Sequence record: PZ496580.1
Length of the DNA: 64,000 nucleotides
From: a phage
Reading direction: 5' to 3' (one strand)
Of this stretch, positions 32,411 to 44,769 are shown in pieces. The position numbers and the translations under genes are program-made. The notes below the pieces were generated by a model. That model saw nothing but the letters and a program-made list of their open reading frames with translations, was not told the DNA's origin and did no database searches. Within the stretch, counting starts at the first letter, position 1. Each line of letters begins with the position of its first letter.

Positions 32411-32446
32411 CAGAAAACGGGGCTAGTATAAAACTAGTCCCCGTTT
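32411..32446 (-). terminator. Terminator after alt
   Basis: Minus-strand hairpin ACGGGGACTAGTTTTATACTAGCCCCGT followed by TTTTCTG. Confidence 0.5.
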
Positions 32447-32470
32447 GAGTCAACCATTATTTCTTAAAAA

Positions 32471-34522
32471 TTACATTTTAAATTTATCTGGCATTGCGTC
32501 TACAGATACCAGATCAGCGATAAGCTGACGTAGAGTTGCCTTATCTGCTTTCTTACGTTCGGTTTTAGCTTCGGTAATGAAGCTGGAGAAAGAAAGGTCA
32601 GAAGCAGGTTTAACAACACCTTCACGGATGAATGCATCACCGTCCGCGATCATCTCGCCAGATTCTTGTAATGCTGCCAGTTCATTTTTGTTCATAATAT
32701 GTGCCTCAATGTAATAAGTTTCTTGTGAATCCGTTGATGCCGTAGCACGAGTTACCGTATCAAAGGATAACACAACACCGCGAGGAAGTAAAATCTCGCA
32801 TTCTTTGTAAGCAAATGCCTTGTTACCTACTGGCAATACAGGGATGTTTTCCGCGCCAGCGATAGAGAAAGCAACATTAGCGCCACCTTCACCGCGAGAT
32901 CCCGCCATAGAATCAACACCAGCAACGGCACTAGCCACGTTTGCATTCCACCCACCAAAAATATTAGGTGCAAGGGAAGTGCTCACATAGTTTTTAAAGT
33001 AAAACGCTTTTTGCTTACGTGCAGTTTCCCACATTTGAGACCGGAAGTCCATACCACGATACAGAATAGTACCAGGATCAAGTTTAACGCCATAGTTAGA
33101 GAAGGCATTATCCAGTGCATCACACATCTTGACCAATTCTTCTGGGTCTGCGATGCCATCAAACTCTTCCAGCTTACGATCGGTTAGGAAGTTGTTCATA
33201 TTGATGTATGCTGCATCGGCATATTCGCTCAACACAAAACCTTCCGCGCCAGGCAGGTCAAGATCAATATCTGCCATCATTTCACCCATGTTGCTAGCAA
33301 TTGCTTCAAACATACCGGAAGCAACATTACGCAGGGCATCGGTTTTAATCTGCGTGATGTGACTACGAAGCATTTCAGCTTTTACATCTGCTGGCATAGA
33401 CTGGTCTACTCGATCCATTGCTAAGGCAGTGATCTTGTTTTCGAATACTTCCTCGTTCATGATTTCTTTTAAGCGTTTGATTGATGCTGCGATAACTTCC
33501 GCAGACAACGGATCATATTGATCCTGAACTTTTACCAGTTCGCTTACTGCGTATTTTGCATCGGCCTCGCTTTCAAAAATAGTACGCATGAAACCATAGC
33601 GAGTGATAATATCACTTGTCCAATCATTCAGAGAACGCGCGGTTGAACGTTCTAAGGCTTGACGGTCAATCAGAGTATTAAACTGTTTCTTAGGTTCGGC
33701 TTCGGTGATATCTTCTTCCGGTTTAAGATTAATTTTTTCTGGATGATTCACATAGTCGCTGTTATAGGTCGCTTGAGTTTTCAGCATTTCTTCTTTAGTC
33801 AAACGAGATTTAGCCGCTACGCGTTGTTCTGCTTCCGCGTTTCGTTCTTCTTCTGACACAAGACTAGCCGCATACGCTTCATCTTTAGTCAGAGATTCGC
33901 CAGTAGCCTTAGATACCCAGCGATCACCTAAATCACTTTCTACTTTAGTGAACAAGGATTCATCAAGTTTAATCCCTTTAATCTTATCAATCGCCATCCC
34001 GCGACGTTTGACAACAACTAAAGCGATCTTTTTGCTGGTCATTACTTCCTGCTGGAATACTTCAAACTTCGGTGTACGACGCACCAAACGCTCTATAACG
34101 CGCTTAACCAGTTCGGTCTTACCTTTCATGCGGGATACGTTAAAACGGAACATAACAGCGTCTAATTGCGCTTTACGGGCTGTTTCCATAACCACATCAA
34201 AAGCACTTGCCATAACTGCAATCGGGTTATCGCCTAGACCATTTTTAAGCTGTACAATACGACCGCTTTTGTTCATTTCGCACAGTACAACATGTGCGGT
34301 CTTGTCACCCATACGAATGATTTTAGGTGTTTTGTTGGTGAAGTTACAAAGACGGACAATCACATCTTTATCGCGTGTCTGTACTGCAAAAAGCTGTTTA
34401 GGATTCTGCTTAGGCTTTAAGCACTGTACCGGGGCAATACTGCCAAAGTTTTCTTCCTCTTCTGTCAACAGCCATTTCTCGAAAGATTCAATCATTAGAT
34501 CGTCGATTTCTAAGTTAAACAT
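32471..34522 (-). CDS. alt: Alt ADP-ribosyltransferase
   Basis: 683 aa (T4 Alt 682); R-S-E triad ILYRG, YVSTS, ECEILLPRG. Confidence 0.85.
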   Translation of the reverse strand: MFNLEIDDLMIESFEKWLLTEEEENFGSIAPVQCLKPKQNPKQLFAVQTRDKDVIVRLCNFTNKTPKIIRMGDKTAHVVLCEMNKSGRIVQLKNGLGDNPIAVMASAFDVVMETARKAQLDAVMFRFNVSRMKGKTELVKRVIERLVRRTPKFEVFQQEVMTSKKIALVVVKRRGMAIDKIKGIKLDESLFTKVESDLGDRWVSKATGESLTKDEAYAASLVSEEERNAEAEQRVAAKSRLTKEEMLKTQATYNSDYVNHPEKINLKPEEDITEAEPKKQFNTLIDRQALERSTARSLNDWTSDIITRYGFMRTIFESEADAKYAVSELVKVQDQYDPLSAEVIAASIKRLKEIMNEEVFENKITALAMDRVDQSMPADVKAEMLRSHITQIKTDALRNVASGMFEAIASNMGEMMADIDLDLPGAEGFVLSEYADAAYINMNNFLTDRKLEEFDGIADPEELVKMCDALDNAFSNYGVKLDPGTILYRGMDFRSQMWETARKQKAFYFKNYVSTSLAPNIFGGWNANVASAVAGVDSMAGSRGEGGANVAFSIAGAENIPVLPVGNKAFAYKECEILLPRGVVLSFDTVTRATASTDSQETYYIEAHIMNKNELAALQESGEMIADGDAFIREGVVKPASDLSFSSFITEAKTERKKADKATLRQLIADLVSVDAMPDKFKM

Positions 34523-34561
34523 TTTATATCCTCTAGTTGATAACCTATAAACCTATATTTA

Positions 34562-34587
34562 TGAAAAAGGGGCTTAACGCCCCTTTT
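34562..34587 (-). terminator. Terminator GGGGCGTTAAGCCCC plus T-run
   Basis: Same hairpin recurs at 39020-39040. Confidence 0.5.
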
Positions 34588-34588
34588 A

Positions 34589-34801
34589 TTATAATGCACC
34601 ATCAAGCAATTGCTCTAAGGTGTATCCTGAATAGTCTTTTTCAATCAGGATATATTTTCCTACTCGTTTAATCCAACCGCGCATTTCAACGTATTCTGCG
34701 TAGTTGATGGTACGAGTTGTTCCATCTTCCAGTAATGCAGTACCGATTTCGTTGATGCGGTCATAAGTTACGTCGGTAATGATGATTTCGATGTTAGCCA
34801 T
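34589..34801 (-). CDS. Hypothetical protein (70 aa, MANIE start)
   Basis: ATG 9 nt after SD AAGGAG of promoter cassette 34838-34866; shares first five codons with ORF 36856-37107. Confidence 0.45.
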   Translation of the reverse strand: MANIEIIITDVTYDRINEIGTALLEDGTTRTINYAEYVEMRGWIKRVGKYILIEKDYSGYTLEQLLDGAL

Positions 34802-34837
34802 TTGATACTCCTTAGTAGTTCGTTTCGGTATGTGTGC

Positions 34838-34866
34838 ATTATAGGGGATCACCGATCCCCTGTCAA
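34838..34866 (-). promoter_or_regulatory. Early promoter cassette (PeSL-type): TTGACA-N17-TATAAT with palindromic spacer
   Basis: Minus strand reads TTGACAGGGGATCGGTGATCCCCTATAAT; spacer is a perfect inverted repeat. Confidence 0.7.
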
Positions 34867-34874
34867 CAACTTTT

Positions 34875-35393
34875 TTAGTTATTTTTTAATTGCTCATCTT
34901 GCAATAGGGCAATCACATGCTGGCGATGTTCTTCCGATTGAGGCACACCGAAAAAGTTTGTTTTGTAGAAATACTCTAATCGGTCTTCTCGTGTGCTCTC
35001 TTCCATCATGATCGCTGGTAGACCAAGATTGCGGAAACGTCGCTTTTCTGCTGGCGTAAAATCGCTGTAATACAGCATAGAATCATCATTACCAGCAATG
35101 CTAAACTCATCCTTCATGAAGGAGAATATTGCGTTTAAACGCTGTTTACCGTCCACGATTTCGATCTCATAGCGAGAGCCATCATCAATCTTAGCCATTG
35201 CGATAGCGCCTACCGGAAAATCATTAATCAGGTTTTCGATAAACATACGTTTGTTTTCTGTGTCCCATACCAAAGGACGCTGATAATCTGGGTTCATGTT
35301 GATATAGCCATCTTCTAACCATGCTTCGTAAACAGAGATGACAAAGTTTTTAGTATTGGTATAGTAACGGCGTTTAGGCGTTAAACGGTTCAT
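34875..35393 (-). CDS. DUF262 / ParB-like nuclease-domain protein
   Basis: DYQRPLVW...FPVGAI...IVDGKQRL matches the DUF262 (GmrSD N-terminal) signature. Confidence 0.6.
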   Translation of the reverse strand: MNRLTPKRRYYTNTKNFVISVYEAWLEDGYINMNPDYQRPLVWDTENKRMFIENLINDFPVGAIAMAKIDDGSRYEIEIVDGKQRLNAIFSFMKDEFSIAGNDDSMLYYSDFTPAEKRRFRNLGLPAIMMEESTREDRLEYFYKTNFFGVPQSEEHRQHVIALLQDEQLKNN

Positions 35394-35569
35394 AATGTGC
35401 TTACCTTTTCAATATATGCGTCCGCATACTGGCGAATGCTCATTTCTTCTCGTACTGCTGCTACAAATTCTTTCATGGATTCAAACCATTTGTAGGTGTC
35501 GCGATACATGACCAACTCTTCCCAAGTAAGATCGCAAATCTCTTTACCGTGTAGTTGTGGTGTTATCAT
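35390..35569 (-). CDS. Small ORF (59 aa), translationally coupled
   Basis: ATGA overlap with the downstream DUF262 gene; below track length cutoff. Confidence 0.3.
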   Translation of the reverse strand: MITPQLHGKEICDLTWEELVMYRDTYKWFESMKEFVAAVREEMSIRQYADAYIEKVSTL

Positions 35570-35901
35570 AATATAGTTCTCCTGAATGGATCATCACGTA
35601 AATCAATATCTTTTAAGAACTCATCCCATGAATGGCGGATATTGTTCTTAATTCTCCAGATAAGCGCAGGGATTGAACGCTCACCCATCTGGAAGTAAGG
35701 ATCATATGATCCGTATGCCCAATATGCTACTACAATTCCACAATCAGCGCAATAGTATTCTATCTCGCTTGCTGGCGACCAAAGTCCATCAATATGATCG
35801 GTGATCTTGCTTTCAATGTTATGACTATGGCAATTAGGGCAACGTATGCAATGACCTTGTTTATCGTAATTTGACGTTAGAGAATACTTAAACAATCTCA
35901 T
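35566..35901 (-). CDS. Zinc-ribbon protein (111 aa)
   Basis: CIRCPNCH ... CADCG four-Cys arrangement; TAATG coupling to the upstream MTase-like gene. Confidence 0.5.
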   Translation of the reverse strand: MRLFKYSLTSNYDKQGHCIRCPNCHSHNIESKITDHIDGLWSPASEIEYYCADCGIVVAYWAYGSYDPYFQMGERSIPALIWRIKNNIRHSWDEFLKDIDLRDDPFRRTIL

Positions 35902-36617
35902 TATAGATCCTTATTGGCTTCAAATACTGCCTTTGCGAATCCTCGCGGGGTAAGTGACCTGATAGTCTTTGTTCTGGTTCCTTTCCCGCCTAGCTTAGAA
36001 TGCTGTTTGCTGTACCCTTTATTAATCGGCAACGGTTTCTTTTCTGGCATTATAAAGCCTTGTCCGGTCCACAAGCAAGTCTTTTTCGGGTACATATCAC
36101 GGGAGGCAATATACTCAGGAAACGTAGGATGTATATCATCTTCCGGCAAATAACCGCCATATTCCCACGGATGGAACATGTAATCAGGCTTACGCCACAT
36201 GCTAGAGATAACGCTTACAGGATTCTCTATCATGTAGGGAACTCCTAGCCATTCACCCAAATAAGCGGTTATTTTAGCTGCCCTTACATCATGAATTTGA
36301 ATTAATGGTCCTTGCTCTCGTTTCTTTCGTTCAAAGTGTGCAGCGCCACTAACAGCTAAATTGGTGCATGGTGGGAATGCAAATATAATATCCGGTTTCC
36401 CCCATTCAAGGTCCATTGCTCTTTCCAGCCAGTTCAAATCAATCCATGTGTTTACATAGGTAATGTTTGGATGTTCAAATCGGGTATTATATTTTTTGTA
36501 TGTACCGTGGTCGCCATCGTCAGCATTAAAGCAGATCACCTTATGACCTGCTTTAGCCCATTCTAGCCCCATTATCCCCGATCCGTCAAAGTTGCAGAAT
36601 ATTAATTTTTGTTTCAT
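35901..36617 (-). CDS. Minimal C5-cytosine methyltransferase-like protein (238 aa)
   Basis: Motif I-like FDGSGIMG, motif IV DIIFAFPPC, motif VI ENP, motif IX-like RSLTPRG; no room for a target-recognition domain. Confidence 0.55.
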   Translation of the reverse strand: MKQKLIFCNFDGSGIMGLEWAKAGHKVICFNADDGDHGTYKKYNTRFEHPNITYVNTWIDLNWLERAMDLEWGKPDIIFAFPPCTNLAVSGAAHFERKKREQGPLIQIHDVRAAKITAYLGEWLGVPYMIENPVSVISSMWRKPDYMFHPWEYGGYLPEDDIHPTFPEYIASRDMYPKKTCLWTGQGFIMPEKKPLPINKGYSKQHSKLGGKGTRTKTIRSLTPRGFAKAVFEANKDL

Positions 36618-36859
36618 ATACGCCCCTTTAACCCAACACAGATTTTAGAAGGTTCTTTACCGTGCCACATTAAGTAAAGTCCGTTAGTGCGGCCTTGTTT
36701 TGTATATGATTCTTTTCTAATCTTCTTATAGTGTCGTGCTTCCTCAACCGATTGTTTAGAATACCAATCATAAAGGAAGATGAACAAAGGCCAACCATTA
36801 GCGGCCTTAATGCAGTTATTAAGAAATTCCTTATTGCGTTTAATTAATTTTCTTTTCAC
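36614..36859 (-). CDS. Hypothetical basic protein (81 aa)
   Basis: Probable GTG start overlapping upstream stop; hydrophobic core segment. Confidence 0.35.
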   Translation of the reverse strand: MKRKLIKRNKEFLNNCIKAANGWPLFIFLYDWYSKQSVEEARHYKKIRKESYTKQGRTNGLYLMWHGKEPSKICVGLKGRI

Positions 36860-37107
36860 GCTGCCCCCGTTGGTTTGATAGTAACAGAATCTAAAAGACC
36901 TTTGTTAGCCAGTTCGCGGCAAGTTTTCAGATCCGCAACTTCCCAGCCAGCCGCAATCAGGTTATCAATCAGGCTGTTAGCAACTTCTTCGCTCATGAAA
37001 GAGCACTGTTTGCCGATGGTGTAGCGTACACGCTGTAATTTCAGTTTACGGAAGCCTTTAACGTTCAGGTCTTTAGCGATTTTCTTTGCGGTTTCGATGT
37101 TAGCCAT
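36856..37107 (-). CDS. Hypothetical protein (83 aa, MANIE start)
   Basis: First gene behind promoter cassette 37148-37176. Confidence 0.5.
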   Translation of the reverse strand: MANIETAKKIAKDLNVKGFRKLKLQRVRYTIGKQCSFMSEEVANSLIDNLIAAGWEVADLKTCRELANKGLLDSVTIKPTGAA

Positions 37108-37147
37108 TGTTTGATTCTCCTAAGTAGTATCTCGTCTTGATGTGTGT

Positions 37148-37176
37148 ATTATAGGGGATGGTGTCTCCCCTGTCAA
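37148..37176 (-). promoter_or_regulatory. Early promoter cassette (PeSL-type)
   Basis: TTGACA-GGGGAGACACCATCCCC-TATAAT on minus strand. Confidence 0.7.
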
Positions 37177-37190
37177 CACTTTTTATAAAA

Positions 37191-37358
37191 TTATTTGTTA
37201 ATTTCCGGTGCGTTGCTCGGATAGTAACCTTCTTTAACTCCGAGGTATTTCGCAACCATCCCTACAATCTTCTGTGCTACTACAATGTCAAATTTCAGAT
37301 AATCTTCGCCGTGGGTTTCAATGATATATGCTTCACATGCTGCTTTAGTCTCGAACAT
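37191..37358 (-). CDS. Small protein (55 aa), paralog of 40945-41112
   Basis: MFETKAACEAYIIETHGEDYLKFDIVVAQKIVGMVAKYLGVKEGYYPSNAPEINK; about 85 percent identical to the copy at 40945-41112. Confidence 0.45.
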   Translation of the reverse strand: MFETKAACEAYIIETHGEDYLKFDIVVAQKIVGMVAKYLGVKEGYYPSNAPEINK

Positions 37359-37391
37359 TTTGATTCTCCTATTTCGTTTCGGTATGTGTGT

Positions 37392-37421
37392 ATTATAGGG
37401 GATCTCCCGATCCCCGTCAAC
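37392..37421 (-). promoter_or_regulatory. Early promoter cassette (PeSL-type)
   Basis: GTTGAC-GGGGATCGGGAGATCCCC-TATAAT. Confidence 0.65.
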
Positions 37422-37434
37422 AACTTTTTTAAAA

Positions 37435-37716
37435 TTATTCGTGATTAGTTTCGATATTGTACATTTTGCACCAGTTCAGCCAATCGCCCAGATCTTGATA
37501 GTTGATGCTTTTATCTGCTGCCATAGTTTTTGTCTTGATACCCATATGTGCGTTATGAGTAAGCATTTTTACAGTGAACTCGATTTTATCGCCTTTAGCT
37601 TTAACATCAACCAGTTTGGTCCACTGGCTACCAGCGCCGCGAATGTTCATACCAACGATGTTTCCGATGTATGCTTCTTTGTTTTTCAGGATTTCGGTTG
37701 CTTTGATGAATTTCAT
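37435..37716 (-). CDS. Hypothetical protein (93 aa)
   Basis: ORF behind promoter cassette 37750-37778. Confidence 0.5.
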   Translation of the reverse strand: MKFIKATEILKNKEAYIGNIVGMNIRGAGSQWTKLVDVKAKGDKIEFTVKMLTHNAHMGIKTKTMAADKSINYQDLGDWLNWCKMYNIETNHE

Positions 37717-37749
37717 TTTTGATTCTCCAGTTCGTTTCGGTATGTGTGT

Positions 37750-37778
37750 ATTATGCTATGTTCTTACTTTGGTGTCAA
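37750..37778 (-). promoter_or_regulatory. Early promoter cassette (variant, -10 CATAAT)
   Basis: TTGACA-N17-CATAAT plus conserved UTR ACCGAAACGAACTGGAGAATCAAAA. Confidence 0.6.
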
Positions 37779-37786
37779 CAACTTTT

Positions 37787-38056
37787 TTAGATATTTTCAG
37801 AAATAAATTTTAAAACTTGACGTAAATGTTTCTCATCTTTGATAGTCGCCGGAAGTTCTTCTTTTACTTCCTGTGCAAGATAGATATTTCCGTTCCAAGT
37901 GAAAGATCCGTCTTCGTTTACGCGATAGCTGAACATCCACTCGCAATCATTTTCGATTTCATATACACACAGAAGGGTGTAATCATTAAAGCTGTTGATT
38001 TCAAGGTCGAGGCCGTGACGTTTTGCAAAGTTGGTAGTGGTTTTAGTCAATGCCAT
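37787..38056 (-). CDS. Hypothetical protein (89 aa)
   Basis: ORF behind promoter cassette 38097-38125. Confidence 0.5.
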   Translation of the reverse strand: MALTKTTTNFAKRHGLDLEINSFNDYTLLCVYEIENDCEWMFSYRVNEDGSFTWNGNIYLAQEVKEELPATIKDEKHLRQVLKFISENI

Positions 38057-38096
38057 TGTTTGATTCTCCTAAGTGGTATCTCGTTTCGATAGGTGT

Positions 38097-38125
38097 ATTA
38101 TGATATAGGCGTGATCTGGTGTCAA
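38097..38125 (-). promoter_or_regulatory. Early promoter cassette (variant)
   Basis: TTGACA-N17-CATAAT. Confidence 0.6.
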
Positions 38126-38145
38126 CAACTTTTTTAAAATTTAGG

Positions 38146-38172
38146 CAATAAAAAGCCGACACTAAGGTCGGC
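38146..38172 (-). terminator. Terminator GCCGACCTTAGTGTCGGC plus TTTTTATT
   Basis: Hairpin plus T-run; duplicated at 38653-38679. Confidence 0.6.
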
Positions 38173-38177
38173 ACATT

Positions 38178-38432
38178 TTAAAAATTCTTGCTATATATGC
38201 AAGCCTCATAATCTAGAGGATGACCGCCAATCCTACCAGGCTTAATATTCCAACCGCATCGATATTTGCTGACCATGCTAACCGTTTCGGTTCTTAGAGC
38301 ATTTCTTTGCAAATCATACCCCCTAAATTCTTGTCTATAAGGACAGTCCGCTTTGCAAGTTGGCGGTTCTACGTCATTTAGCGGGTCAGAAGCAGTTGGC
38401 TTTATTATCAATTCTTTGTTTGCAATAATCAT
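38178..38432 (-). CDS. Hypothetical protein (about 84 aa), overlapping the preceding ORF
   Basis: Start placed at internal ATG (MIIANKEL); overlaps the 3' end of ORF 38386-38565 in another frame; start uncertain. Confidence 0.3.
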   Translation of the reverse strand: MIIANKELIIKPTASDPLNDVEPPTCKADCPYRQEFRGYDLQRNALRTETVSMVSKYRCGWNIKPGRIGGHPLDYEACIYSKNF

Positions 38433-38565
38433 AAGCACATCCCATTGAAGGCAATTTAACATCTTCGCAATAAGTGTTGAATCCGTCAAATACAATCACT
38501 TCGTATTTGACTCCATCGGCGATAGCTTTTACTTTATACCATCCATGCTTGTATAAAATCTTCAT
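38386..38565 (-). CDS. Hypothetical Cys-containing protein (59 aa)
   Basis: ATG at 38565 after promoter cassette 38599-38627. Confidence 0.4.
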   Translation of the reverse strand: MKILYKHGWYKVKAIADGVKYEVIVFDGFNTYCEDVKLPSMGCAYDYCKQRIDNKANCF

Positions 38566-38598
38566 CTTTATTTCCCTCAATCTCGTTTCGATGGGTGT

Positions 38599-38627
38599 AT
38601 TATGCTATAGGCGTGATCTGGTGTCAA
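38599..38627 (-). promoter_or_regulatory. Early promoter cassette (variant)
   Basis: TTGACA-N17-CATAAT. Confidence 0.6.
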
Positions 38628-38652
38628 TGCCTTTTTTTTTAAAAATTTTATG

Positions 38653-38679
38653 CAATAAAAAGCCGACACTAAGGTCGGC
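38653..38679 (-). terminator. Terminator GCCGACCTTAGTGTCGGC plus T-run
   Basis: Copy of 38146-38172. Confidence 0.6.
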
Positions 38680-38687
38680 TAATAAAA

Positions 38688-38997
38688 TCATTTAGACAAA
38701 TAATCATTCTGTGCAATCCGGTCGGCGTATGCTGGTGTTATGTCAATCGCCAGCACTTTAACGCGTGCTTTCTTGCGACCTGAGTTTTCTCGTAACCAGT
38801 GCTCATGACCGTGAACATTTTTATACTTTGATGCTGTTTCGAAAGTACGGATCGGACCTGGGTAATCAGCGTAAAGGATCTCTAGGTCTTCGGTGATGTA
38901 AAAATATACATCATAATTACTGTTCTCTAGTTTAAGCAGAGAGTTGCGTAATTGTGGTAAATTCTCGCGGGTAAATTCAACTACAAGATTTTTCATA
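38688..38997 (-). CDS. Small protein, HxHW family member A (102 aa)
   Basis: C-terminal GHEHW...VKVLAIDI signature shared with four or five other ORFs; start at MKNLVV. Confidence 0.5.
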
Positions 38998-39019
38998 GTG
39001 ATATCCTCATTCAGATAGA

Positions 39020-39040
39020 TTAAAAGGGGCTTAACGCCCC
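39020..39040 (-). terminator. Terminator GGGGCGTTAAGCCCC plus T-run
   Basis: Same hairpin as 34562-34587. Confidence 0.5.
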
Positions 39041-39045
39041 ATATA

Positions 39046-39333
39046 TTAAAACAGTCCTTCCTGTACACCGTAGTAGAGTTCATCGCTGATAATTTCATTA
39101 ATGCGACGGTGTGCATATTCCTGATTTGCGAAGTTGTCAGCAAGTTCTACTTTAGTTTCGCCGTCATGAGTCCATTTAGTGATAACTTTACCATCTGCAA
39201 ATTTGAAGTTGAACTCTTTAGCTACTGCATCGCGTACCAGACGTGCAAACTTGTTGTTACGGATTGCATTATCGGTCTCGTGTGCAGCGTGAGCAAATTT
39301 GTTAACTTTCAGCGTGATAGTGATGTATGCCAT
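39046..39333 (-). CDS. Hypothetical protein (95 aa)
   Basis: ORF behind promoter cassette 39374-39402. Confidence 0.5.
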   Translation of the reverse strand: MAYITITLKVNKFAHAAHETDNAIRNNKFARLVRDAVAKEFNFKFADGKVITKWTHDGETKVELADNFANQEYAHRRINEIISDELYYGVQEGLF

Positions 39334-39373
39334 TGTTTGATTCTCCTAAGTGGTATCTCGTTTCGATGGGTGT

Positions 39374-39402
39374 ATTATGCTATACACCCGATCTTATGTC
39401 AA
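39374..39402 (-). promoter_or_regulatory. Early promoter cassette (variant)
   Basis: TTGACA-N17-CATAAT. Confidence 0.6.
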
Positions 39403-39407
39403 CACTT

Positions 39408-39686
39408 TTATAAAATAATTTTTTGATATTTTTCTATGATGTTTGAGTAGGTCACATCAACCGCTAGCACCGTTGCTTCGAATCCACCGTCTAGCCAATG
39501 GCTATGGTCATGATCGTGAAAGAAACCAAGACCAGTACGAAGACCTTCTTTATATTCGGCGCGTACATTCAGTTTGTCGTCGATAAACAGATAAAACCAT
39601 GAATTTTTACTAGGATTGATGATACAACCTTTCAGATTAGGGAGAATATCACGACTAAGAATAAACTTATCACCTACTTTGAACAT
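39408..39686 (-). CDS. Small protein, HxHW family member B (92 aa)
   Basis: FYLFIDDK ... HDHDHSHW ... TVLAVDV; SD GAGGA. Confidence 0.5.
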   Translation of the reverse strand: MFKVGDKFILSRDILPNLKGCIINPSKNSWFYLFIDDKLNVRAEYKEGLRTGLGFFHDHDHSHWLDGGFEATVLAVDVTYSNIIEKYQKIIL

Positions 39687-39709
39687 AATATTGTCCTCAC
39701 TTATAAAGT

Positions 39710-40009
39710 TTAACTGTTGTTTTTCTCGTAATGCTGCATACGTGCTTGATCTGCTTCCGCTGGTGATAGATTCCATGCGATCACTACAACTTCTGACGCA
39801 TCATGATCATTATCACTTACCCAATGATTATGATTCATACAATTGTTTGCTATCGCGTGAGCAAATGATCTCATTACAGGAGACGTATAATCATAGTAAC
39901 GGATTTTCAGATTTTCATCAACGTACAAATAGATCGTATAAGGTTTATATTCAGTAACCAGTAACAGACAGTTACGCAATTCTGGGAAAATCTTTTTAGT
40001 TAATTTCAT
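39710..40009 (-). CDS. Small protein, HxHW family member C (99 aa)
   Basis: YLYVDENL ... NHNHW ... VVVIAWNL. Confidence 0.5.
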   Translation of the reverse strand: MKLTKKIFPELRNCLLLVTEYKPYTIYLYVDENLKIRYYDYTSPVMRSFAHAIANNCMNHNHWVSDNDHDASEVVVIAWNLSPAEADQARMQHYEKNNS

Positions 40010-40211
40010 ATTCTAGTTCTCCGTAATACACGGTAATCCATTTTTCTTCATACTTTGTATCTTTCCAGCACACAATCCCGTTTACTGCGCAATCTTTGGA
40101 ATTGACGAATGATTCATATTGTTCTGCATCTTCCATCATTGCATGAGCGGTCTTTTCATCGAATATATCGCAGATCGCTTTATATGCTCGATAATCTTTA
40201 AATTTGCTCAT
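39996..40211 (-). CDS. Small protein, MSKFKDY family copy 1 (71 aa)
   Basis: MSKFKDYRAYKAICDIFDEKTAHAMMEDAEQ; tandem paralog of 40214-40423. Confidence 0.45.
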   Translation of the reverse strand: MSKFKDYRAYKAICDIFDEKTAHAMMEDAEQYESFVNSKDCAVNGIVCWKDTKYEEKWITVYYGELEYEIN

Positions 40212-40213
40212 AA

Positions 40214-40423
40214 TTAACACCATTCAAGAGTTTTTGAAAACACGTCTATCCATTGTTGAGTGTAGCATGTTTCTTTCCATGATACAATACGAGTAGAATA
40301 ATGGTTTTTGTTTCCAGAAAAGGACGGGCATTTTGATGCATCTTCCATCATCTTTTCGGCGAACTCTGGTTCGTATACCCGCAGGATCTGTTGATATGCT
40401 TTATAATCTTTAAATTTGCTCAT
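40214..40423 (-). CDS. Small protein, MSKFKDY family copy 2 (69 aa)
   Basis: MSKFKDYKAYQQILRVYEPEFAEKMMEDASK. Confidence 0.45.
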   Translation of the reverse strand: MSKFKDYKAYQQILRVYEPEFAEKMMEDASKCPSFSGNKNHYSTRIVSWKETCYTQQWIDVFSKTLEWC

Positions 40424-40688
40424 AATTGTTAACTACCTTATCAGCTTCTTTTATTGTTTTTACATCAACTGCGATAATCCGTAAAGGTTCGTCGAAGGTC
40501 CACCAATGATCGTGAATATCAGCTTGTGATTTATCACCAAAGGAATCACGAATATCATTTTTACATTTATAGCTAATATGGCCTTCATAGTCAACATAAA
40601 GGTAATTATCGAAAATCGGCGTTTTTAAGATCATACCGAAAAATCTTTCTTTGTGTGTCTTATCCAGCGTTGCAGTAATTCGCATCAT
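40410..40688 (-). CDS. Small protein, HxHW family member D (92 aa)
   Basis: YLYVDYEG ... DIHDHWW ... RIIAVDV. Confidence 0.5.
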   Translation of the reverse strand: MMRITATLDKTHKERFFGMILKTPIFDNYLYVDYEGHISYKCKNDIRDSFGDKSQADIHDHWWTFDEPLRIIAVDVKTIKEADKVVNNYEQI

Positions 40689-40700
40689 AATATATTCCTC

Positions 40701-40880
40701 TTAGAAAGGGATGGTCATTTCTTGAGCTTGTACATTCTCATTAGGATTAAACTTCATCCAGCCGATATTGTCTACCAGCATATGCACATTTTTATCATAT
40801 CCTACGTGGGTAGTCAATACTGTATGTGCTTTACCTTCAATTATGAGTTCCATGTACTTCTGAACTTCGATAGCTTTCAT
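40701..40880 (-). CDS. Small ORF (59 aa)
   Basis: MKAIEVQKYMELIIEGKAH...; ATG after promoter cassette 40913-40941; below track cutoff. Confidence 0.35.
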   Translation of the reverse strand: MKAIEVQKYMELIIEGKAHTVLTTHVGYDKNVHMLVDNIGWMKFNPNENVQAQEMTIPF

Positions 40881-40912
40881 TTTGATTCTCCGTTTGTTGT
40901 CTTGATGGGAGT

Positions 40913-40941
40913 ATCTTACTACTCCCTTTAATCATTGTCAA
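40913..40941 (-). promoter_or_regulatory. Early promoter cassette (variant, stem-loop overlapping -10 TAAGAT)
   Basis: TTGACA-N17-TAAGAT with GGGAGTAGTAAGATACTCCC palindrome. Confidence 0.5.
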
Positions 40942-40944
40942 CTA

Positions 40945-41112
40945 TTATTTGTTAATTTCTGGTGCGTTGCTCGGATAGTAACCTTCTTTAACACCCAGAT
41001 ATTTTGCAACCATTCCGGTGATCTTCTGTGCTACTACGATATCGAATTTCAGGTAGTCTTCACCGTGGTTTGCTACAATGTATGCTTCGCATTCTGCTTT
41101 AGTCTGGAACAT
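40945..41112 (-). CDS. Small protein (55 aa), paralog of 37191-37358
   Basis: MFQTKAECEAYIVANHGEDYLKFDIVVAQKITGMVAKYLGVKEGYYPSNAPEINK. Confidence 0.45.
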   Translation of the reverse strand: MFQTKAECEAYIVANHGEDYLKFDIVVAQKITGMVAKYLGVKEGYYPSNAPEINK

Positions 41113-41147
41113 TTTTTGATTCTCCTATATCTCGTTGGTATGTGTGC

Positions 41148-41176
41148 ATTATAGGGGATCACCGATCCCCTGTCAA
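41148..41176 (-). promoter_or_regulatory. Early promoter cassette (PeSL-type)
   Basis: Core is a reverse-complement copy of 34838-34866 (spacer GGGGATCGGTGATCCCC). Confidence 0.7.
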
Positions 41177-41181
41177 CAACT

Positions 41182-41475
41182 TTATAATGCTTTATATGCG
41201 TATTTCATAAATTTGTCTGCCACTTCATTGGCATGTTCAGCTTCTACGCCTGATTCGAGAACAATAGCTAGGTCGGTTTCGTCATTCCCGCCGTACCAAT
41301 GATTTGATGTTCGATTTTTTTCAATTGGAAATTGGTCACTTTTATCTGTGCGACAAAATACATCTAAATGCTCGTCGATGTAAAAGATCCAATCTTCATA
41401 AAGAATAACGGTATTAGCCAGATTTTTATTGCCTTCAACGAAAGGTTCGGCTACAAACAAATTAGTATGTTCCAT
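41182..41475 (-). CDS. Small protein, divergent HxHW-family member F (97 aa)
   Basis: ILYEDWIFYIDEHLD ... NHWYGG ... LAIVLE; start at MEHTNL with SD GAGGAA. Confidence 0.4.
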   Translation of the reverse strand: MEHTNLFVAEPFVEGNKNLANTVILYEDWIFYIDEHLDVFCRTDKSDQFPIEKNRTSNHWYGGNDETDLAIVLESGVEAEHANEVADKFMKYAYKAL

Positions 41476-41491
41476 AACAATTTCCTCAAAA

Positions 41492-41683
41492 TTATACAAC
41501 TTCGTAAACTTCCCAATGTTCAGCGCCAGCACGCTTAACGAAAAGGTTTTCTTTGATGTTATTCATAAACGTATGAATGGATTTAATGCGGTTGGAAGGT
41601 TTCCAGTCTTCGTTAGCATTGCGGCGATACATTATAACATTACCAGATCGCTTATATTCAGCAACCATTTTAAGACCACACAT
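41492..41683 (-). CDS. Hypothetical basic protein (63 aa)
   Basis: ORF with SD GAGGAT. Confidence 0.4.
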   Translation of the reverse strand: MCGLKMVAEYKRSGNVIMYRRNANEDWKPSNRIKSIHTFMNNIKENLFVKRAGAEHWEVYEVV

Positions 41684-41740
41684 AATATTATCCTCAATTT
41701 GTGGGAGAGTATTACCCCTCCCGATGTTTGTTATATTACA

Positions 41741-42061
41741 TTACACAAAATGGCGTGTCAATGCTTCTTTTGCTGTTCCGCTAAGACTTTCGATCTCGCC
41801 TGGCATAACATCAACTGCCAGAACTTCTACAACATCCTCGGACCCTAACCAGTGAGTATGACCTTTGTAGAACTTGATGACCAGACTACCTTCCTCGTCC
41901 CATTTAACGCTATCGCTAGCCCACCACACATCACCGTCGATAAAGTTGATGTAAAGCACACTACGCCACATTGAATTAATTACTTTCAATACTGCGCCTT
42001 TCATCTCTTCCACGGTATGGTCTTCCATTTTGAAGACCTCACCTACCTGAACTTTTGCCAT
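41741..42061 (-). CDS. Small protein, HxHW family member E (106 aa)
   Basis: VLYINFIDGD ... KGHTHW ... VEVLAVDV. Confidence 0.5.
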   Translation of the reverse strand: MAKVQVGEVFKMEDHTVEEMKGAVLKVINSMWRSVLYINFIDGDVWWASDSVKWDEEGSLVIKFYKGHTHWLGSEDVVEVLAVDVMPGEIESLSGTAKEALTRHFV

Positions 42062-42081
42062 TTAGTTTTACCTCTCGTTAA

Positions 42082-42261
42082 TTACATTACGATCACGCCA
42101 GCCGTTGAAAGTTGATGTTTCAACTGAGCATTTTCTGCTACCGTCAAATCAATGATTTCTTGTGACGCTGCAATCATATAGCCATTGGTGATATTGTTTT
42201 GCATCAGTTCAATGGTTTCTTCGTTGTAGCGGATTTTAGCGATGATTTCGTTGAAGTTCAT
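42082..42261 (-). CDS. Hypothetical protein (59 aa)
   Basis: ATG behind promoter cassette 42296-42324. Confidence 0.4.
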   Translation of the reverse strand: MNFNEIIAKIRYNEETIELMQNNITNGYMIAASQEIIDLTVAENAQLKHQLSTAGVIVM

Positions 42262-42295
42262 AATTGATTCTCCTAGTTCGTTTCGGTATGTGTGT

Positions 42296-42324
42296 AGTAT
42301 AGGGGATCGGTGATCCCCTGTCAA
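42296..42324 (-). promoter_or_regulatory. Early promoter cassette (PeSL-type)
   Basis: TTGACA-GGGGATCACCGATCCCC-TATACT. Confidence 0.65.
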
Positions 42325-42337
42325 CAACTTTTTTGAA

Positions 42338-42814
42338 TTATTTTTCTTGATGCTCGCGCTCGTACTTTTCGAAATAAAATTCTACTGGCTGGTCGTGGAT
42401 TGAAAGCAAGCCAAAGCGTTTAGCCGCTCGTAATCCCATATTGCGCTGAATGTACTTCTGGAAGTTCTCGCGTATACACTTACGCCAGTATTCTAAGCCC
42501 ATACAGCTTTTATAAAGATTGCATTGCACACATGCCGGATTCATGTTATCAAGTATATCATGCTCCGGTTTATGCATTCCTACAACCTTATACTTCCACG
42601 ATCCATCATCGTTACGGGAAATGCGCCCATTTTCATCATAGACTACTTTTGAGCGTCGTAATACTGGTTTGATATGATCCGCGTGCCAGCGTTCTCCTAG
42701 TACCTCTCCGCAATAGGCACAACGTCCACCGTATTTCATTTTCAGGATCTGGCGTTGCTCTTTCTTTGACAATTTTTTAGGTTTAGGGGCTTTCGCCCCT
42801 TCATTATCACACAT
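42338..42814 (-). CDS. HNH endonuclease
   Basis: CAYCG...HADHIKP...NMNPACVQCN HNH motif; overlaps the ligase 3' end by 8 nt. Confidence 0.7.
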   Translation of the reverse strand: MCDNEGAKAPKPKKLSKKEQRQILKMKYGGRCAYCGEVLGERWHADHIKPVLRRSKVVYDENGRISRNDDGSWKYKVVGMHKPEHDILDNMNPACVQCNLYKSCMGLEYWRKCIRENFQKYIQRNMGLRAAKRFGLLSIHDQPVEFYFEKYEREHQEK

Positions 42815-44309
42815 CGAATACCTCTTTTACTGTATTTGCAGTGGTCTTGTCGTAGCGAATACGTTTGATGATCGGGAGAAATAAAGAGAACTCCGGTTCA
42901 TCTTCTTTACGTGATTTGCTGCGGATATACCCGTTGCATGTCATCTCAATGACTTTTCCGATCAGGTTATGACGGTCAGCCCATAACATTTCTCGGTCAA
43001 GTTCATTTCGACGATCGAACGGAATTACACGTTCAATACCATCATCACCTTTTTCGGTTGTGGTGTCGGTCAATCCCGATCCGGTGTTAGTCATCATTCG
43101 TCCGCACGCACTACGGACAGTAAAACCGCCTACCTTATTAGGATCTTTACTATGCGGATATACATCAACAATTTCCGCGTCGAAGTCAATCACTTCTTTA
43201 AATTTAACCTGATCTTTACTGCGACGATCTTCAAATACACCATGTAAATTTTTAAGGATAATACCTTCTAAGCCCATGTTTACATAGCGATGATATACTT
43301 CGCGAGCTTCATCTATATTGTTAACTACAGTGTTTTCGATTATCTGAACACGAGGATCGTTAAGTTCTTCAACAATCTGTTTTAGTTCTTCGAATCGATC
43401 TTTATATTGCTTCGTTGCTTTCTCGTTTCCGTAATACACATCACGGTCGATAACATCCCAGACAGTGTAAACAATACATTGGGCTTCTTCTTTTGGAATA
43501 GTTCCTTTCAGTGATTTGTTGAGGATGCCATTTCCGGTCTGACGATCTGCAACAACGGATTCTTTCACTGCTTCCGCTACTGGCGTTAATGGCATTTCCT
43601 CTTCTTCAAATATCCATGACAGAGTACCGTCATAAACGCTCTCAACGAAGTTCTGCGCTGGTGTTTGCGAAAGGGTAGGCATATATACCAATTCGCCATC
43701 TAGAACAATTCCACGTCCTCGTAGACGCTCTAAAACCGCAAACAAATCATCAAGCCCCTGATAGGTATTACCTGAACGGGTATAGATTGCTAATGTTTCC
43801 CCGTCAATATCAGCCATACCACGAGCGCCATCGCTTTTAAGTTGTGCATATGCAGGATATTTGATATTAGCAATGGCCTTATCAGAATATGACGATGCAA
43901 GGTGGCACGGTTGCTGGGGGATCAGTTTCTTCCATACCTTGTTTGCAGTGGTAGCGGAACAACCGCATTCCAGGTCACGATTCAGGACCATCATTGCAAC
44001 TTTAGCATCATCTTCTGACAAGCAAGTCAGAGTATCGGTAACTAGCTGTAATGCTGCATTGCCAGTTACTTGACGTGTGGCAAGTTTATTTTTAAAGACT
44101 TGTAATGCACCGGATAAAGACAATACAGACGAATATCGCGATGGTTTATCGTATTTCTTTACGCCAAACGTAACCTGTTTGCAATATGCCAGATAAAAGC
44201 ATTCTTTCAGAGTGTCATTGCTTGCTGATTCTTTCAGGATCTTTTCTTTCAGCGATGTTTTGTCTGTTGCTGCAAGCTGATTAATGATATTAAGAATTGA
44301 CATTTTCAC
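42807..44309 (-). CDS. 30: ATP-dependent DNA ligase (gp30)
   Basis: 500 aa; adenylation motif AQLKSDGAR and overall similarity to T4 ligase. Confidence 0.9.
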   Translation of the reverse strand: MKMSILNIINQLAATDKTSLKEKILKESASNDTLKECFYLAYCKQVTFGVKKYDKPSRYSSVLSLSGALQVFKNKLATRQVTGNAALQLVTDTLTCLSEDDAKVAMMVLNRDLECGCSATTANKVWKKLIPQQPCHLASSYSDKAIANIKYPAYAQLKSDGARGMADIDGETLAIYTRSGNTYQGLDDLFAVLERLRGRGIVLDGELVYMPTLSQTPAQNFVESVYDGTLSWIFEEEEMPLTPVAEAVKESVVADRQTGNGILNKSLKGTIPKEEAQCIVYTVWDVIDRDVYYGNEKATKQYKDRFEELKQIVEELNDPRVQIIENTVVNNIDEAREVYHRYVNMGLEGIILKNLHGVFEDRRSKDQVKFKEVIDFDAEIVDVYPHSKDPNKVGGFTVRSACGRMMTNTGSGLTDTTTEKGDDGIERVIPFDRRNELDREMLWADRHNLIGKVIEMTCNGYIRSKSRKEDEPEFSLFLPIIKRIRYDKTTANTVKEVFDV

Positions 44310-44769
44310 CTCGTTTTGTTAAACGTTCACGAATATCATTGAGGATACTACAAAATTCTGATTCGGTCAATATGGTCTTTAACGGATCAGTTCCACCTAT
44401 GCTATGACGTAATTTCTTATTTCCGGTAGCGAGTAACGCTTTACAAAATTCCGGGTTATTCCTTGCCATCGTAACAAATGCCAGATGTACCAGTCTGTAA
44501 TAATGCTCACTCATTCGATGAATCGGGCGACCCTGAAAATATAACATGTGATTCTCTATCTTTTCAGTCCTTCCGGTTCTTTTTGCTTTGCCACCGTACA
44601 TCAAAAAGATTTCTCTTTGTCTCTGAGGGTTCTTAAATCTTAGCCCCTGTAAAAATCCTTCTGTGCTGTTAATATCGCAACCAAATAGACGGAATGGTCT
44701 TTTATTGAAATTACTCAATTCACCAGATGGATAAGGTCCACCCGCATAGATATCAATTTCAGAAGTCAT
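44290..44769 (-). CDS. NADAR / YbiA-like domain protein
   Basis: GELSNF ... EFCKALLATGNKKLRH resemble E. coli YbiA (GDFSNF ... ELRALLLAT) landmarks. Confidence 0.55.
   Translation of the reverse strand: MTSEIDIYAGGPYPSGELSNFNKRPFRLFGCDINSTEGFLQGLRFKNPQRQREIFLMYGGKAKRTGRTEKIENHMLYFQGRPIHRMSEHYYRLVHLAFVTMARNNPEFCKALLATGNKKLRHSIGGTDPLKTILTESEFCSILNDIRERLTKRGENVNS

Follow-up and report, generated by a model that had tools for sequence, protein, structure and literature searches.

The hyperplastic region HPR3 of phages RB49 and phi1 is where promoter-early stem-loops (PeSLs) were defined, as sigma-70 consensus promoters with a GGGG...CCCC hairpin (Arbiol, Comeau, Kutateladze, Adamia and Krisch, 2010, Genome Biol Evol 2:140; PMC2839356). 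When PeSLs recombine with one another, gene cassettes are excised as mini-circles; those sequenced from the HPR3 cluster carry ORF191-194 and ORF192-193, and their junction positions vary (PMC2839356). In a lacZ assay, PeSL206/205 of RB49/phi1 yielded ~13,000 Miller units, and ORFs 192, 195, 196, 196.1 and 211 were listed as specific to RB49 (PMC2839356). A later study extended the description of PeSLs to the phages T4/PST and KVP40/nt-1 (Comeau et al., 2014; PMC4122927). In the main text of the 2010 paper, 'paralog' does not occur and 'duplicat' occurs only for duplicate cultures (PMC2839356).

Identity of the phage and the locus

The window analysed here is a stretch of 64,000 nucleotides of phage DNA (PZ496580.1). 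The source phage is a Krischvirus, i.e. an RB49-like T4-type coliphage. Nucleotide identity of the region to RB49, SAP, TB34 and other Krischvirus genomes is 94-95%; in the structural region the nearest relative reaches 97%, and the phage is identical to no deposited genome. The segment at 37191-41112, for which the original prediction had reported duplications, is the core of HPR3 (RB49 ORF190-ORF209). HPR3 lies between alt and the DNA ligase gene and holds ~20 small early genes, each of them on the minus strand. The RB49 gene order from ORF185 to ORF212, between alt and gp30, is reproduced in the window. The combination of cassettes is new: ORF186, ORF192, ORF210 and ORF211 are missing, one additional ORF is located at about 35390-35569, the ORF192 state is of the phi1 type and the ORF195/196 state is of the RB49 type.

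Anatomy and inventory of PeSLs

Nearly every gene or short operon in the HPR3 segment is preceded by a PeSL, which comprises an AT-rich tract, a consensus sigma-70 promoter, a G/C-rich hairpin and a conserved 5' UTR with a Shine-Dalgarno (SD) sequence (Table 1). The hairpin takes one of three positions: in the 17-nt spacer, across the -10 box, or upstream, where it forms a separate terminator. Folding energies are -12 to -18 kcal/mol, with z-scores of -2.5 to -4.4. The elements described earlier as palindromic-spacer promoters and as a 95-bp UTR-promoter-terminator cassette belong to different subclasses of PeSLs. Ten aligned elements have AAAAAAGTTGTTGACA...TATAATACACACATACCGAAACGA...AGGAGAATCAA in common. 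The window has 11 copies of the strict promoter pattern GTTGACR-N17-YATAMT, where 0.07 would be expected by chance; they all lie on the minus strand, mostly (8 of 11) within 34.8-42.3 kb. Similarity among PeSLs amounts to 79-91% identity over 72-98 nt and reaches into the spacer, UTR and AT tract; PeSL199/198, for example, matches cassette copy A at 87% identity over 89 nt, a stretch that takes in the UTR and the ATGGCA start.

Table 1. Features of HPR3 in the window and indels among relatives.
Feature	Coordinates	Strand	Remarks
PeSL, alt-proximal edge of hyperplastic region	34838..34866	-	spacer identical to PeSL206/205; breakpoint of ORF186 indel and MIZ4 deletion
PeSL191/190	37108..37190	-	TTGACA-GGGGAGACACCATCCCC-TATAAT (37176-37148); downstream boundary of 55-aa copy 1
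55-aa ORF copy 1	37191..37358	-	ortholog of RB49/phi1 ORF191; phrog_8009
PeSL193/191	37359..37434	-	AT-rich tract; TTGACG-GGGATCGGGAGATCCCC-TATAAT (37420-37392); spacer hairpin, -14.9 kcal/mol, z -3.3; UTR AGGAGAATCAAA ahead of copy 1 (ORF191) ATG
PeSL194/193	37717..37786	-	TTGACA-17 nt-CATAAT (37778-37750); without strong hairpin
Cassette copy A (PeSL195/194)	38075..38172	-	terminator hairpin 38172-38155 and T-run; UTR start
PeSL195/194 promoter	38125-38097	-	TTGACA-17 nt-CATAAT
Two-gene module ORF195 (38178-38432) and ORF196 (38386-38565)	38178..38565	-	bracketed by cassette copies A and B
Cassette copy B (PeSL197/196)	38581..38679	-	terminator hairpin 38680-38661 and T-run; UTR start
PeSL197/196 promoter	38627-38599	-	TTGACA-17 nt-CATAAT
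HxHW paralog ORF197, 102 aa	38688..38996	-	
PeSL199/198	39334..39407	-	TTGACA-17 nt-CATAAT (39402-39374); hairpin GGGTGTAT...ATACACCC over -10 box
HxHW paralog ORF199, 92 aa	39408..39686	-	
HxHW paralog ORF200, 99 aa	39710..40009	-	
MSKFKDY paralog 1, ORF201, 71 aa	39996..40211	-	phrog_8471
MSKFKDY paralog 2, ORF202, 69 aa	40214..40423	-	phrog_8471; 2 nt upstream of paralog 1
HxHW paralog ORF203, 92 aa	40410..40688	-	E = 3.8e-5, 3-seed HMM
PeSL205/204	40881..40944	-	TTGACA-17 nt-TAAGAT (40941-40913); hairpin GGGAGTA...TACTCCC overlapping -10 box, -11.9 kcal/mol, z -3.7; downstream boundary of 55-aa copy 2
55-aa ORF copy 2	40945..41112	-	ortholog of RB49/phi1 ORF205; phrog_8009
PeSL206/205	41113..41181	-	TTGACA-GGGGATCGGTGATCCCC-TATAAT (41176-41148); spacer hairpin, -18 kcal/mol; SD ahead of copy 2 (ORF205)
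ORF206, 97 aa	41182..41475	-	most divergent HxHW candidate; seed HMM E = 0.08
HxHW paralog ORF208, 106 aa	41741..42061	-	E = 2.1e-6, 3-seed HMM
PeSL, ligase-proximal edge	42296..42324	-	TTGACA-GGGGATCACCGATCCCC-TATACT; spacer is reverse complement of spacer at 41176-41148; breakpoint of ORF210(/211) indel and phiS deletion
HNH endonuclease gene	42338-42814		edge of region
Indel 1			ORF186
Indel 2	about 35393-35566		extra window ORF
Indel 3			ORF192
Indel 4			ORF191 lost in Brandy
Indel 5	34877-37359		lost in MIZ4
Indel 6	38172-38580		lost in phi1, ECD7, phiS
Indel 7	37427-40944		lost in Cognac and FL04
Indel 8	41183-42277		lost in phiS
Indel 9			ORF210(/211), not in window

Duplicated genes and cassettes

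The two 55-aa ORFs, predicted to be about 85% identical and to lie behind palindromic-spacer promoters, align without gaps at 49 of 55 amino acids and 143 of 168 nt, and each follows a sigma-70 promoter that is perfect or nearly so and has a palindromic spacer of 17 nt, as had been proposed. A comparison of copy number among relatives found that most of the 66 phage records with a match, RB49, phi1 and JSE among them, have both copies. An assembly artefact, with a repeat collapsed or expanded in a single assembly, has nothing in its favour and a negligible probability. The copies differ at 25 of 168 nt and therefore cannot be one locus assembled twice, both occupy the same positions in most of these 66 independently sequenced records, and the other two pairs described below, the cassettes and the MSKFKDY genes, also recur in RB49, SAP, MIZ4 and others. 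The 15% divergence of the copies and their recurrence in dozens of independently sequenced genomes exclude such an artefact.

Within one genome, the 55-aa paralogs are separated by 21-26 differences in 168 nt, compared with 1-8 between orthologs. Because both copies are widespread and paralogs have diverged more than orthologs, the duplication predates the sampled diversity of the genus, and the earlier description of the duplications as recent does not hold. Third codon positions account for 18 of the 25 differences, and the differing codons comprise 16 synonymous versus 6 non-synonymous changes; this excess indicates that both copies are under purifying selection. Diagnostic sites in Brandy, SAP, Cognac and phiS reveal mosaic tracts, which point to exchange between the paralogs. 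ORF191/ORF205 are an old duplicate of one cassette, bounded by PeSLs on both sides, with both copies retained under purifying selection.

The pair of ~98-bp cassettes, reported as about 90% identical, agrees at 88 of 103 positions in a gapped global alignment; in the terminator part of 43 nt, identity is 91% with no gaps. The cassette is ordered as hairpin GCCGACCTTAGTGTCGGC, T-run, TTGACA-17 nt-CATAAT and the first ~20 nt of the 5' UTR. The ORF195/196 module enclosed by the pair is present in RB49, SAP, Brandy, MIZ4 and the window and absent from phi1, ECD7 and phiS, where one hybrid cassette takes its place. In phi1/ECD7, the 5' side of this hybrid is of the 197/196 type and the 3' side of the 195/194 type.

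The MSKFKDY genes are indeed tandem paralogs, with 30 of 71 amino acids in common (42% identity) and a global BLOSUM62 score of 138 against -19 +/- 11 (maximum 23) for 1000 shuffles, and nearly every one of 57 records has the duplication at two sites. Their grouping with the cassettes is not upheld, given the 42% identity and a 2-nt gap that holds no promoter or hairpin. The pair is an old, ordinary tandem duplication within one transcription unit, separate from the cassettes.

A further paralog family, the HxHW family, was overlooked in the original prediction and has five firm members and one marginal one. The latter, ORF206, was picked up in only one of three jackhmmer runs and is probably a sixth paralog. 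Four of the six HxHW paralogs, like the MSKFKDY pair, have no individual PeSL flanks, so cassettes do not account for all of the paralogy in the region.

Recombination at PeSLs

Recombination between PeSLs very probably (probability about 0.88) adds, removes and duplicates small early genes at this locus. For the phage in the window itself, the basis is comparative data and literature: repeat anatomy, orthology to the published locus, breakpoints in relatives, and the age and selection of paralogs come from this analysis, and promoter strength, terminator activity and mini-circles from published work. PeSLs offer 70-100 bp of mutual similarity in direct orientation, so that the general homologous recombination of the phage could cross over between any two. 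Intervening genes may then be excised, re-inserted at another PeSL or swapped between co-infecting phages, each cassette bringing its own promoter and terminator. The 55-aa duplication itself may have arisen by PeSL-mediated re-insertion or unequal exchange; the first duplication could go back to a mini-circle that was re-inserted, to unequal crossover in concatemers, or to a second copy acquired from another phage.

Breakpoints were mapped in nine relatives out of ~60 available, and every breakpoint of the nine different indels lies on a PeSL or repeat (Table 1). The ORF191/ORF205 cassettes now act as a 240-bp direct repeat, which can delete the intervening 3.5 kb. In Cognac, the single 55-aa cassette joins a 205-type PeSL to a 191-type coding sequence by a crossover between the -10 box and the ATG, and in FL04 the crossover lies further upstream, in the AT-rich/-35 tract. 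Since the crossover points differ, these 3.5-kb deletions represent two independent events. Of the predicted recent cassette-mediated shuffling of small early genes, the shuffling is borne out by the published PeSL mechanism and the breakpoints in nine relatives, and 'recent' has to be dropped.

Similarity among PeSLs need not all reflect exchange, because a strong promoter and ribosome-binding site are themselves selected for, which explains part of it. It is very unlikely, however, that independent selection for a strong sigma-70 promoter, terminator and ribosome-binding site accounts for all of the likeness, with no role for recombination and with duplicates from unrelated illegitimate events. 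The best-conserved PeSL columns are indeed the -35 box, -10 box and SD, and promoter-like sites at a relaxed threshold (32 versus 27 +/- 5 expected) show no overall enrichment; but the similarity extends far beyond the hexamers, both ends of all nine mapped indels lie in PeSLs or repeats, genomes with a single cassette carry hybrids with the predicted left and right halves, and mini-circle junctions have been sequenced experimentally at this locus (PMC2839356).

Crossover by a dedicated, integron-like site-specific factor that recognizes the GGGG...CCCC hairpin, in place of general homologous recombination, is also very unlikely. In a speculation by Arbiol et al., a DNA-binding protein might target the conserved stem-loop (PMC2839356), mirror-image forms occur among the spacer hairpins, and an HNH endonuclease gene is found at the edge of the region. 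However, the crossover point changes from event to event, as in Cognac and FL04 and in the published mini-circles (PMC2839356), the phi1-type ORF195/196 deletion used cassettes without any GGGG...CCCC spacer hairpin, and the region encodes no integrase or recombinase.

Comparison with known systems

The repeats are the PeSLs already described in 2010 at this RB49-type locus, and recombination between them makes the finding an ordinary one, already explained. The window resembles RB49/phi1 HPR3 in locus, gene order and nucleotide identity (94-95%); the PeSLs of both have the AT tract, sigma-70 consensus, GGGG...CCCC hairpin (in the -35/-10 spacer or over the -10 box), SD and ATG; and the indels of ORF192, ORF195/196 and ORF210/211 are in common. 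The present analysis contributes, as small additions, the ORF191/205 pair, the finding that this pair served as a deletion substrate in Cognac and FL04, and an HxHW family of several members.

Like PeSL cassettes, the morons of lambdoid phages (Hendrix et al., 2000) are single accessory genes with their own promoter and terminator between resident genes. Arbiol et al. drew this comparison themselves (PMC2839356). In contrast, the regulatory sequences flanking morons are not conserved repeats, and no role in mobility is ascribed to them, whereas PeSL flanks are a repeated family with crossovers inside. Integron gene cassettes are likewise small and promoter-associated, with circular intermediates and ORFan arrays, but the PeSL region is without an integrase and attC/attI sites, and its varying crossover positions, unlike those of integrons, fit general homologous recombination.

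Phage identity and locus

The 36800-42400 segment matches 59 phage records, Krischvirus without exception, at 94-95% identity to SAP, TB34, Sf20 and RB49, and the structural region (1-24000) reaches at most 97% identity to any record, with Brandy the closest; the window is therefore assigned to Krischvirus. In RB49 the equivalent stretch comprises alt, which encodes the RNA polymerase ADP-ribosylase, ORF185-ORF212 and the DNA ligase gene 30, in this order and on a single strand. Between alt and ligase the window holds about 20 ORFs of 55-172 aa, on the minus strand throughout. By position, alt to gp30, this is the hyperplastic region HPR3 of RB49. Collinear alignment to RB49 and phi1 (94-96% identity) covers the same intergenic regions, which establishes orthology to the published promoter-early stem-loops (PeSLs, named by their flanking ORFs in RB49 numbering).

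The gene for the Alt ADP-ribosyltransferase has a paralog in the ORF downstream (37% identity across 109 aa), which the MIZ4 and FL04 annotations call an ADP-ribosyltransferase. At the hyperplastic-region edge, an HNH endonuclease-like ORF, equivalent to RB49 ORF212, adjoins the ligase gene, with a PeSL (42296-42324) directly downstream of this ORF.

Features of the region in window coordinates, and variable segments among nine relatives
Feature	Coordinates	Strand	Distribution	Breakpoint
ADP-ribosyltransferase ORF	31568-32392	minus
alt	32471-34522	minus
ORF186			absent in window; present in RB49, Brandy, SAP, phi1, FL04	PeSL 34801-34877
Segment	34877-37359		missing in MIZ4	two PeSLs
59-aa ORF (MITPQLHGKEICDL...)	~35390-35569	minus	window and FL04 only; missing in 8 of 9 relatives
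ORF191 (55 aa)	37191-37358	minus	missing in Brandy	37198-37359
Segment	37427-40944		missing in Cognac, FL04	two 55-aa cassettes
ORF192			RB49 only	37435-37439
PeSL195/194	38075-38172	minus
Segment (ORF195/196)	38172-38580		missing in phi1, ECD7, phiS	98-bp cassette pair
PeSL197/196	38581-38679	minus
ORF197 (HxHW)	38688-38996	minus
ORF199 (HxHW)	39408-39686	minus
ORF200 (HxHW)	39710-40009	minus
ORF201 (MSKFKDY)	39996-40211	minus
ORF202 (MSKFKDY)	40214-40423	minus
ORF203 (HxHW)	40410-40688	minus
ORF205 (55 aa)	40945-41112	minus
ORF206 (HxHW, weaker)	41182-41475	minus
Segment	41183-42277		missing in phiS	two PeSLs
ORF208 (HxHW)	41741-42061	minus
ORF210 (and ORF211 in RB49, Cognac)			absent in window	PeSL 42277-42351
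HNH endonuclease-like ORF	42338-42814	minus
DNA ligase	42807-44309	minus

Promoter-early stem-loops in the window

Ten intergenic elements between 34.8 and 42.3 kb can be aligned over about 90 nt. Their consensus comprises an AT-rich tract, AAAAAAGTTGTTGACA, a 17-nt spacer, TATAAT or CATAAT, ACACACATACCGAAACGA and the Shine-Dalgarno sequence AGGAGAATCAA(A), which precedes each ATG. The 25 nt upstream of the -35 box are 72-88% A+T in the ten elements, the upstream gene ends with its stop codon inside this tract, and the element-bearing gaps measure 64-122 nt. In nine elements, all on the minus strand, the sigma-70 -35 and -10 boxes match at 11-12 of 12 positions with 17-nt spacing. For the strict pattern GTTGACR-N17-YATAMT, 0.07 sites are expected in the window and 11 are present, every one on the minus strand and eight of them within 34.8-42.3 kb. 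Chance is ruled out for both the repeats and the promoter pattern.

A GGGG...CCCC hairpin occupies the spacer of five elements, two others fold across the -10 box (39374-39402 and 40913-40941), and in the 98-bp cassette pair a terminator hairpin stands apart, upstream of the promoter (38155-38172 and 38661-38680); one element, PeSL194/193, is without a strong hairpin. Predicted folding energies range from -10 to -18 kcal/mol; relative to shuffles, the z-scores are -2.5 to -4.4. The repeats under study show each sequence-level feature that defines PeSLs and are members of that system.

As originally predicted, the cassette is present in two copies, PeSL195/194 and PeSL197/196, identical at 88 of 103 gapped positions and at 91% in the terminator part, ungapped. 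Each copy comprises an intrinsic-terminator-like hairpin (GCCGACCTTAGTGTCGGC and a T-run), TTGACA-17 nt-CATAAT and the start of the 5' UTR. The predicted duplication of a 55-aa ORF behind palindromic-spacer promoters likewise holds: ORF191 and ORF205 align without gaps, with 49/55 aa and 143/168 nt identical, and their products belong to phrog_8009 (annotated as unknown function). The sigma-70 promoter ahead of each gene is near-perfect and has a GGGG...CCCC palindrome as its 17-nt spacer. The second gene is preceded by PeSL206/205, which differs from its phi1 version in the hairpin loop and one -10 position.

Spacer hairpins also occur in mirror forms, GGGGATCGGTGATCCCC (34838-34867 and 41148-41177) and its exact reverse complement GGGGATCACCGATCCCC (42296-42325). 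At the orthologous PeSL206/205, the loop reads GGT in the window and Cognac and ACC in phi1 (about 3160-3225 of the fetched sequence, L007). Such forms could arise by loop inversion on the palindrome or by the swap of a whole PeSL. Two more PeSL-like promoters lie outside HPR3 on the minus strand (52986-53015 and 50722-50751), one with a CGGGGAGAAATCCCCG spacer hairpin.

Indels and hybrid junctions among relatives

RB49, Brandy, MIZ4, phiS, ECD7, SAP, phi1, Cognac and FL04 were each aligned to positions 32001-45000 of the window. Nine distinct indels were found, and among these nine relatives the breakpoints all fall on PeSLs or on the duplicated repeats (Table). The 59-aa ORF is a further variable cassette of the hyperplastic region. 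At every indel the alignments on the two sides have about one repeat length of the relative's sequence in common, the signature that homologous exchange between repeats leaves. Hybrid junction cassettes were detected in phi1, ECD7, Cognac and FL04.

Excision or insertion of the ORF195/196 module via the 98-bp repeat predicts a hybrid cassette, as seen in phi1 and ECD7. Both have one cassette between ORF197 and ORF194, of the 197/196 type on its 5' side (the ORF197 end, ATTAGCCGACC...) and of the 195/194 type on its 3' side (GAGATACCACTTAGGAGAATCAAACAATGGCA). Only one 55-aa gene is present in Cognac and in FL04, between ORF206 upstream and ORF190 downstream. At the Cognac junction the PeSL is 205-type as far as the Shine-Dalgarno sequence and is followed by a 191-type coding sequence. 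In FL04 the 205 side covers no more than the AT-rich tract ahead of the -35 box, and 191-type sequence has begun by the spacer. Because the crossover points differ, these are two independent deletions, each of about 3.5 kb and 12 genes.

Age of the 55-aa duplication and exchange between the copies

The 55-aa gene was detected by tblastn in 66 phage records, in two places in most, including RB49, phi1 and JSE; Cognac and FL04 have the 191-type copy only, and MIZ4, MIZ5, UPWr_E1, Brandy and JK32 the 205-type copy only. Orthologous copies, extracted from relatives by a Hamming-distance scan, differ from the copies in the window by 1-8 nt, and paralogs by 21-26 nt. The gene was therefore duplicated before the sampled Krischvirus diversity arose, which contradicts the original view of the event as recent. 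Eighteen of the 25 nucleotide differences within the pair are at third codon positions, and 16 differing codons are synonymous and six nonsynonymous. Purifying selection therefore acts on both copies.

Mosaics were found at the 25 diagnostic sites. The sole copy in Brandy (L002, 7406-7573; here and below, coordinates are internal to each fetched sequence) is 205-type with a six-site run of 191-type, although Brandy is without ORF191, and 191-type copies with 205-type 3' ends occur in SAP (L006, 3892-4059), Cognac (L008, 6501-6668) and phiS (L004, 3837-4004). These tracts point to gene conversion or between-phage exchange, evidently still ongoing, between the 55-aa paralogs or between the same genes in co-infecting phages. 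Uneven divergence of the pair was also considered as a sign of gene conversion within the window (4/25 differences in the last 60 nt, binomial P = 0.03; third positions, P = 0.17) and rejected as too weak. The mosaic patterns of the relatives are the better evidence.

Beside its terminase gene, the unrelated 47.6-kb siphovirus vB_EcoS_swi2 encodes a 51-aa protein homologous to the 55-aa protein at 72% identity (L010, 2501-2656). Inspection upstream of this homolog revealed a weak TTGAAG-17 nt-TAGAAT site and no PeSL. The 55-aa gene has evidently moved between unrelated phages. Four Salmonella phage records were also matched by the 55-aa protein, as tblastn matches alone.

The MSKFKDY pair and the HxHW family

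The tandem MSKFKDY paralogs, ORF201 and ORF202, were correctly recognized in the original prediction. The two genes are 2 nt apart, their products share 30/71 aa (alignment score 138 vs -19 +/- 11 for shuffles) and belong to phrog_8471, and almost all of 57 records have the gene in two places. No PeSL lies between the two genes. The pair is an old tandem duplication within one transcription unit, as opposed to a cassette event. Cassette-mediated shuffling of small early genes, the explanation originally offered for all these repeats, thus fails for the MSKFKDY pair, while as a mechanism it is supported by the nine indels and hybrid junctions and was published for this locus in 2010.

At the 5' ends of the MSKFKDY genes (40175-40225 vs 40387-40437), 31 of the first 36 nt and the AATT ahead of the ATG are identical, compared with 53% in the remainder; an obvious Shine-Dalgarno sequence is absent at both. 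This similarity may reflect a translational-coupling constraint or local gene conversion.

Six further ORFs, overlooked in the original prediction, are of similar length (92-106 aa), and in all of them an invariant H-x-H-W precedes a V-L-A-V-D-V-like strand. Searched against 425 window ORFs, a three-member HMM recovered ORF208 (E = 2e-6), ORF203 (E = 4e-5) and, marginally, ORF206 (E = 0.08), and one of three jackhmmer runs recruited all six; the family has five firm members and one marginal member. Within this region, all-against-all BLASTP of the window ORFs detected no paralogs beyond the 55-aa pair and ORF197/200, and the other HxHW members required the HMM. PHROGs places the HxHW ORFs in five families with weak cross-hits between them, annotated only as 'unknown function', and a Pfam scan of nine paralog-family proteins gave none above threshold. 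A search of 5.8 billion proteins yielded 88 relatives for the HxHW family, five for the 55-aa protein and three for the MSKFKDY protein; wherever an organism name or long contig is given, they look Krischvirus-like. The HxHW family appears confined to Krischvirus.

The AlphaFold2 model of ORF197, built from 47 sequences, is reasonably confident (pLDDT 80.4, pTM 0.77) and consists of a small beta-sheet and a C-terminal helix. Foldseek against BFVD returned Krischvirus paralogs only, and the PDB held no convincing fold match. Because the Pfam, PHROGs, protein and structure searches were uninformative, no function is assigned to the paralogs. An early, non-essential role in host interaction is the likeliest for the HxHW genes, judged solely by their position behind early promoters.

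Comparison with known systems

PeSLs were defined in RB49 and phi1, with about 50 motifs per genome, concentrated in hyperplastic regions, and five subclasses distinguished by stem-loop position (Arbiol et al., 2010, PMC2839356). In these two phages, PeSL206/205 has a promoter activity of about 13,000 Miller units, the stem-loop (SLS) of PeSL211/210 acts as a terminator/attenuator, and mini-circles carrying ORF191-194, ORF192-193 and ORF210 were identified by inverse PCR and sequencing (Arbiol et al., 2010, PMC2839356). ORFs 192, 195, 196, 196.1 and 211 form an RB49-specific cluster (Arbiol et al., 2010, PMC2839356). These activities and mini-circles were shown for the RB49/phi1 orthologs of the window elements.

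Re-insertion of mini-circles was only hypothesised (Arbiol et al., 2010, PMC2839356). ORF191/ORF205 could be the footprint of such an event, in which a PeSL-plus-ORF mini-circle re-inserted at a second PeSL (duplicative cassette movement). The 12-gene, 3.5-kb block between the copies would then be a facultative excisable module, repeatedly lost (Cognac, FL04) and exchanging sequence by gene conversion, and the two small paralog pairs would join the HxHW family in a diversifying early host-takeover/anti-defence set maintained by the same mechanism. We consider this reading tentative, with a probability of roughly one in four.

The significance of these results is limited and goes little beyond confirmation of the 2010 mechanism. 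They add comparative support from later-sequenced phages, two independent natural deletions between the 55-aa cassettes and the three-family content of HPR3. In the 2010 main text (PMC2839356), 'paralog' appears nowhere and 'duplicat' refers to duplicate cultures only, so there are small additions in the mosaic tracts, the HxHW family and the finding that ORF191/205 serves as a substrate for deletion. By protein search, the three paralog families of HPR3, of unknown function, appear confined to Krischvirus. These families are possible targets for the study of early host-takeover/anti-defence genes in these therapeutic coliphages.

An integron-like site-specific system would have a dedicated integrase or recombinase and a fixed crossover site. 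Here, no recombinase was found among the ORFs of the region, the nine Pfam-scanned paralog proteins or the annotations of relatives, and crossover positions vary between events. Both the variable crossover points and the use of cassettes lacking a GGGG...CCCC spacer hairpin favor general homologous recombination over a site-specific enzyme. The region represents textbook PeSL-mediated modular shuffling in T4-type phages, an already known system and not a new kind.
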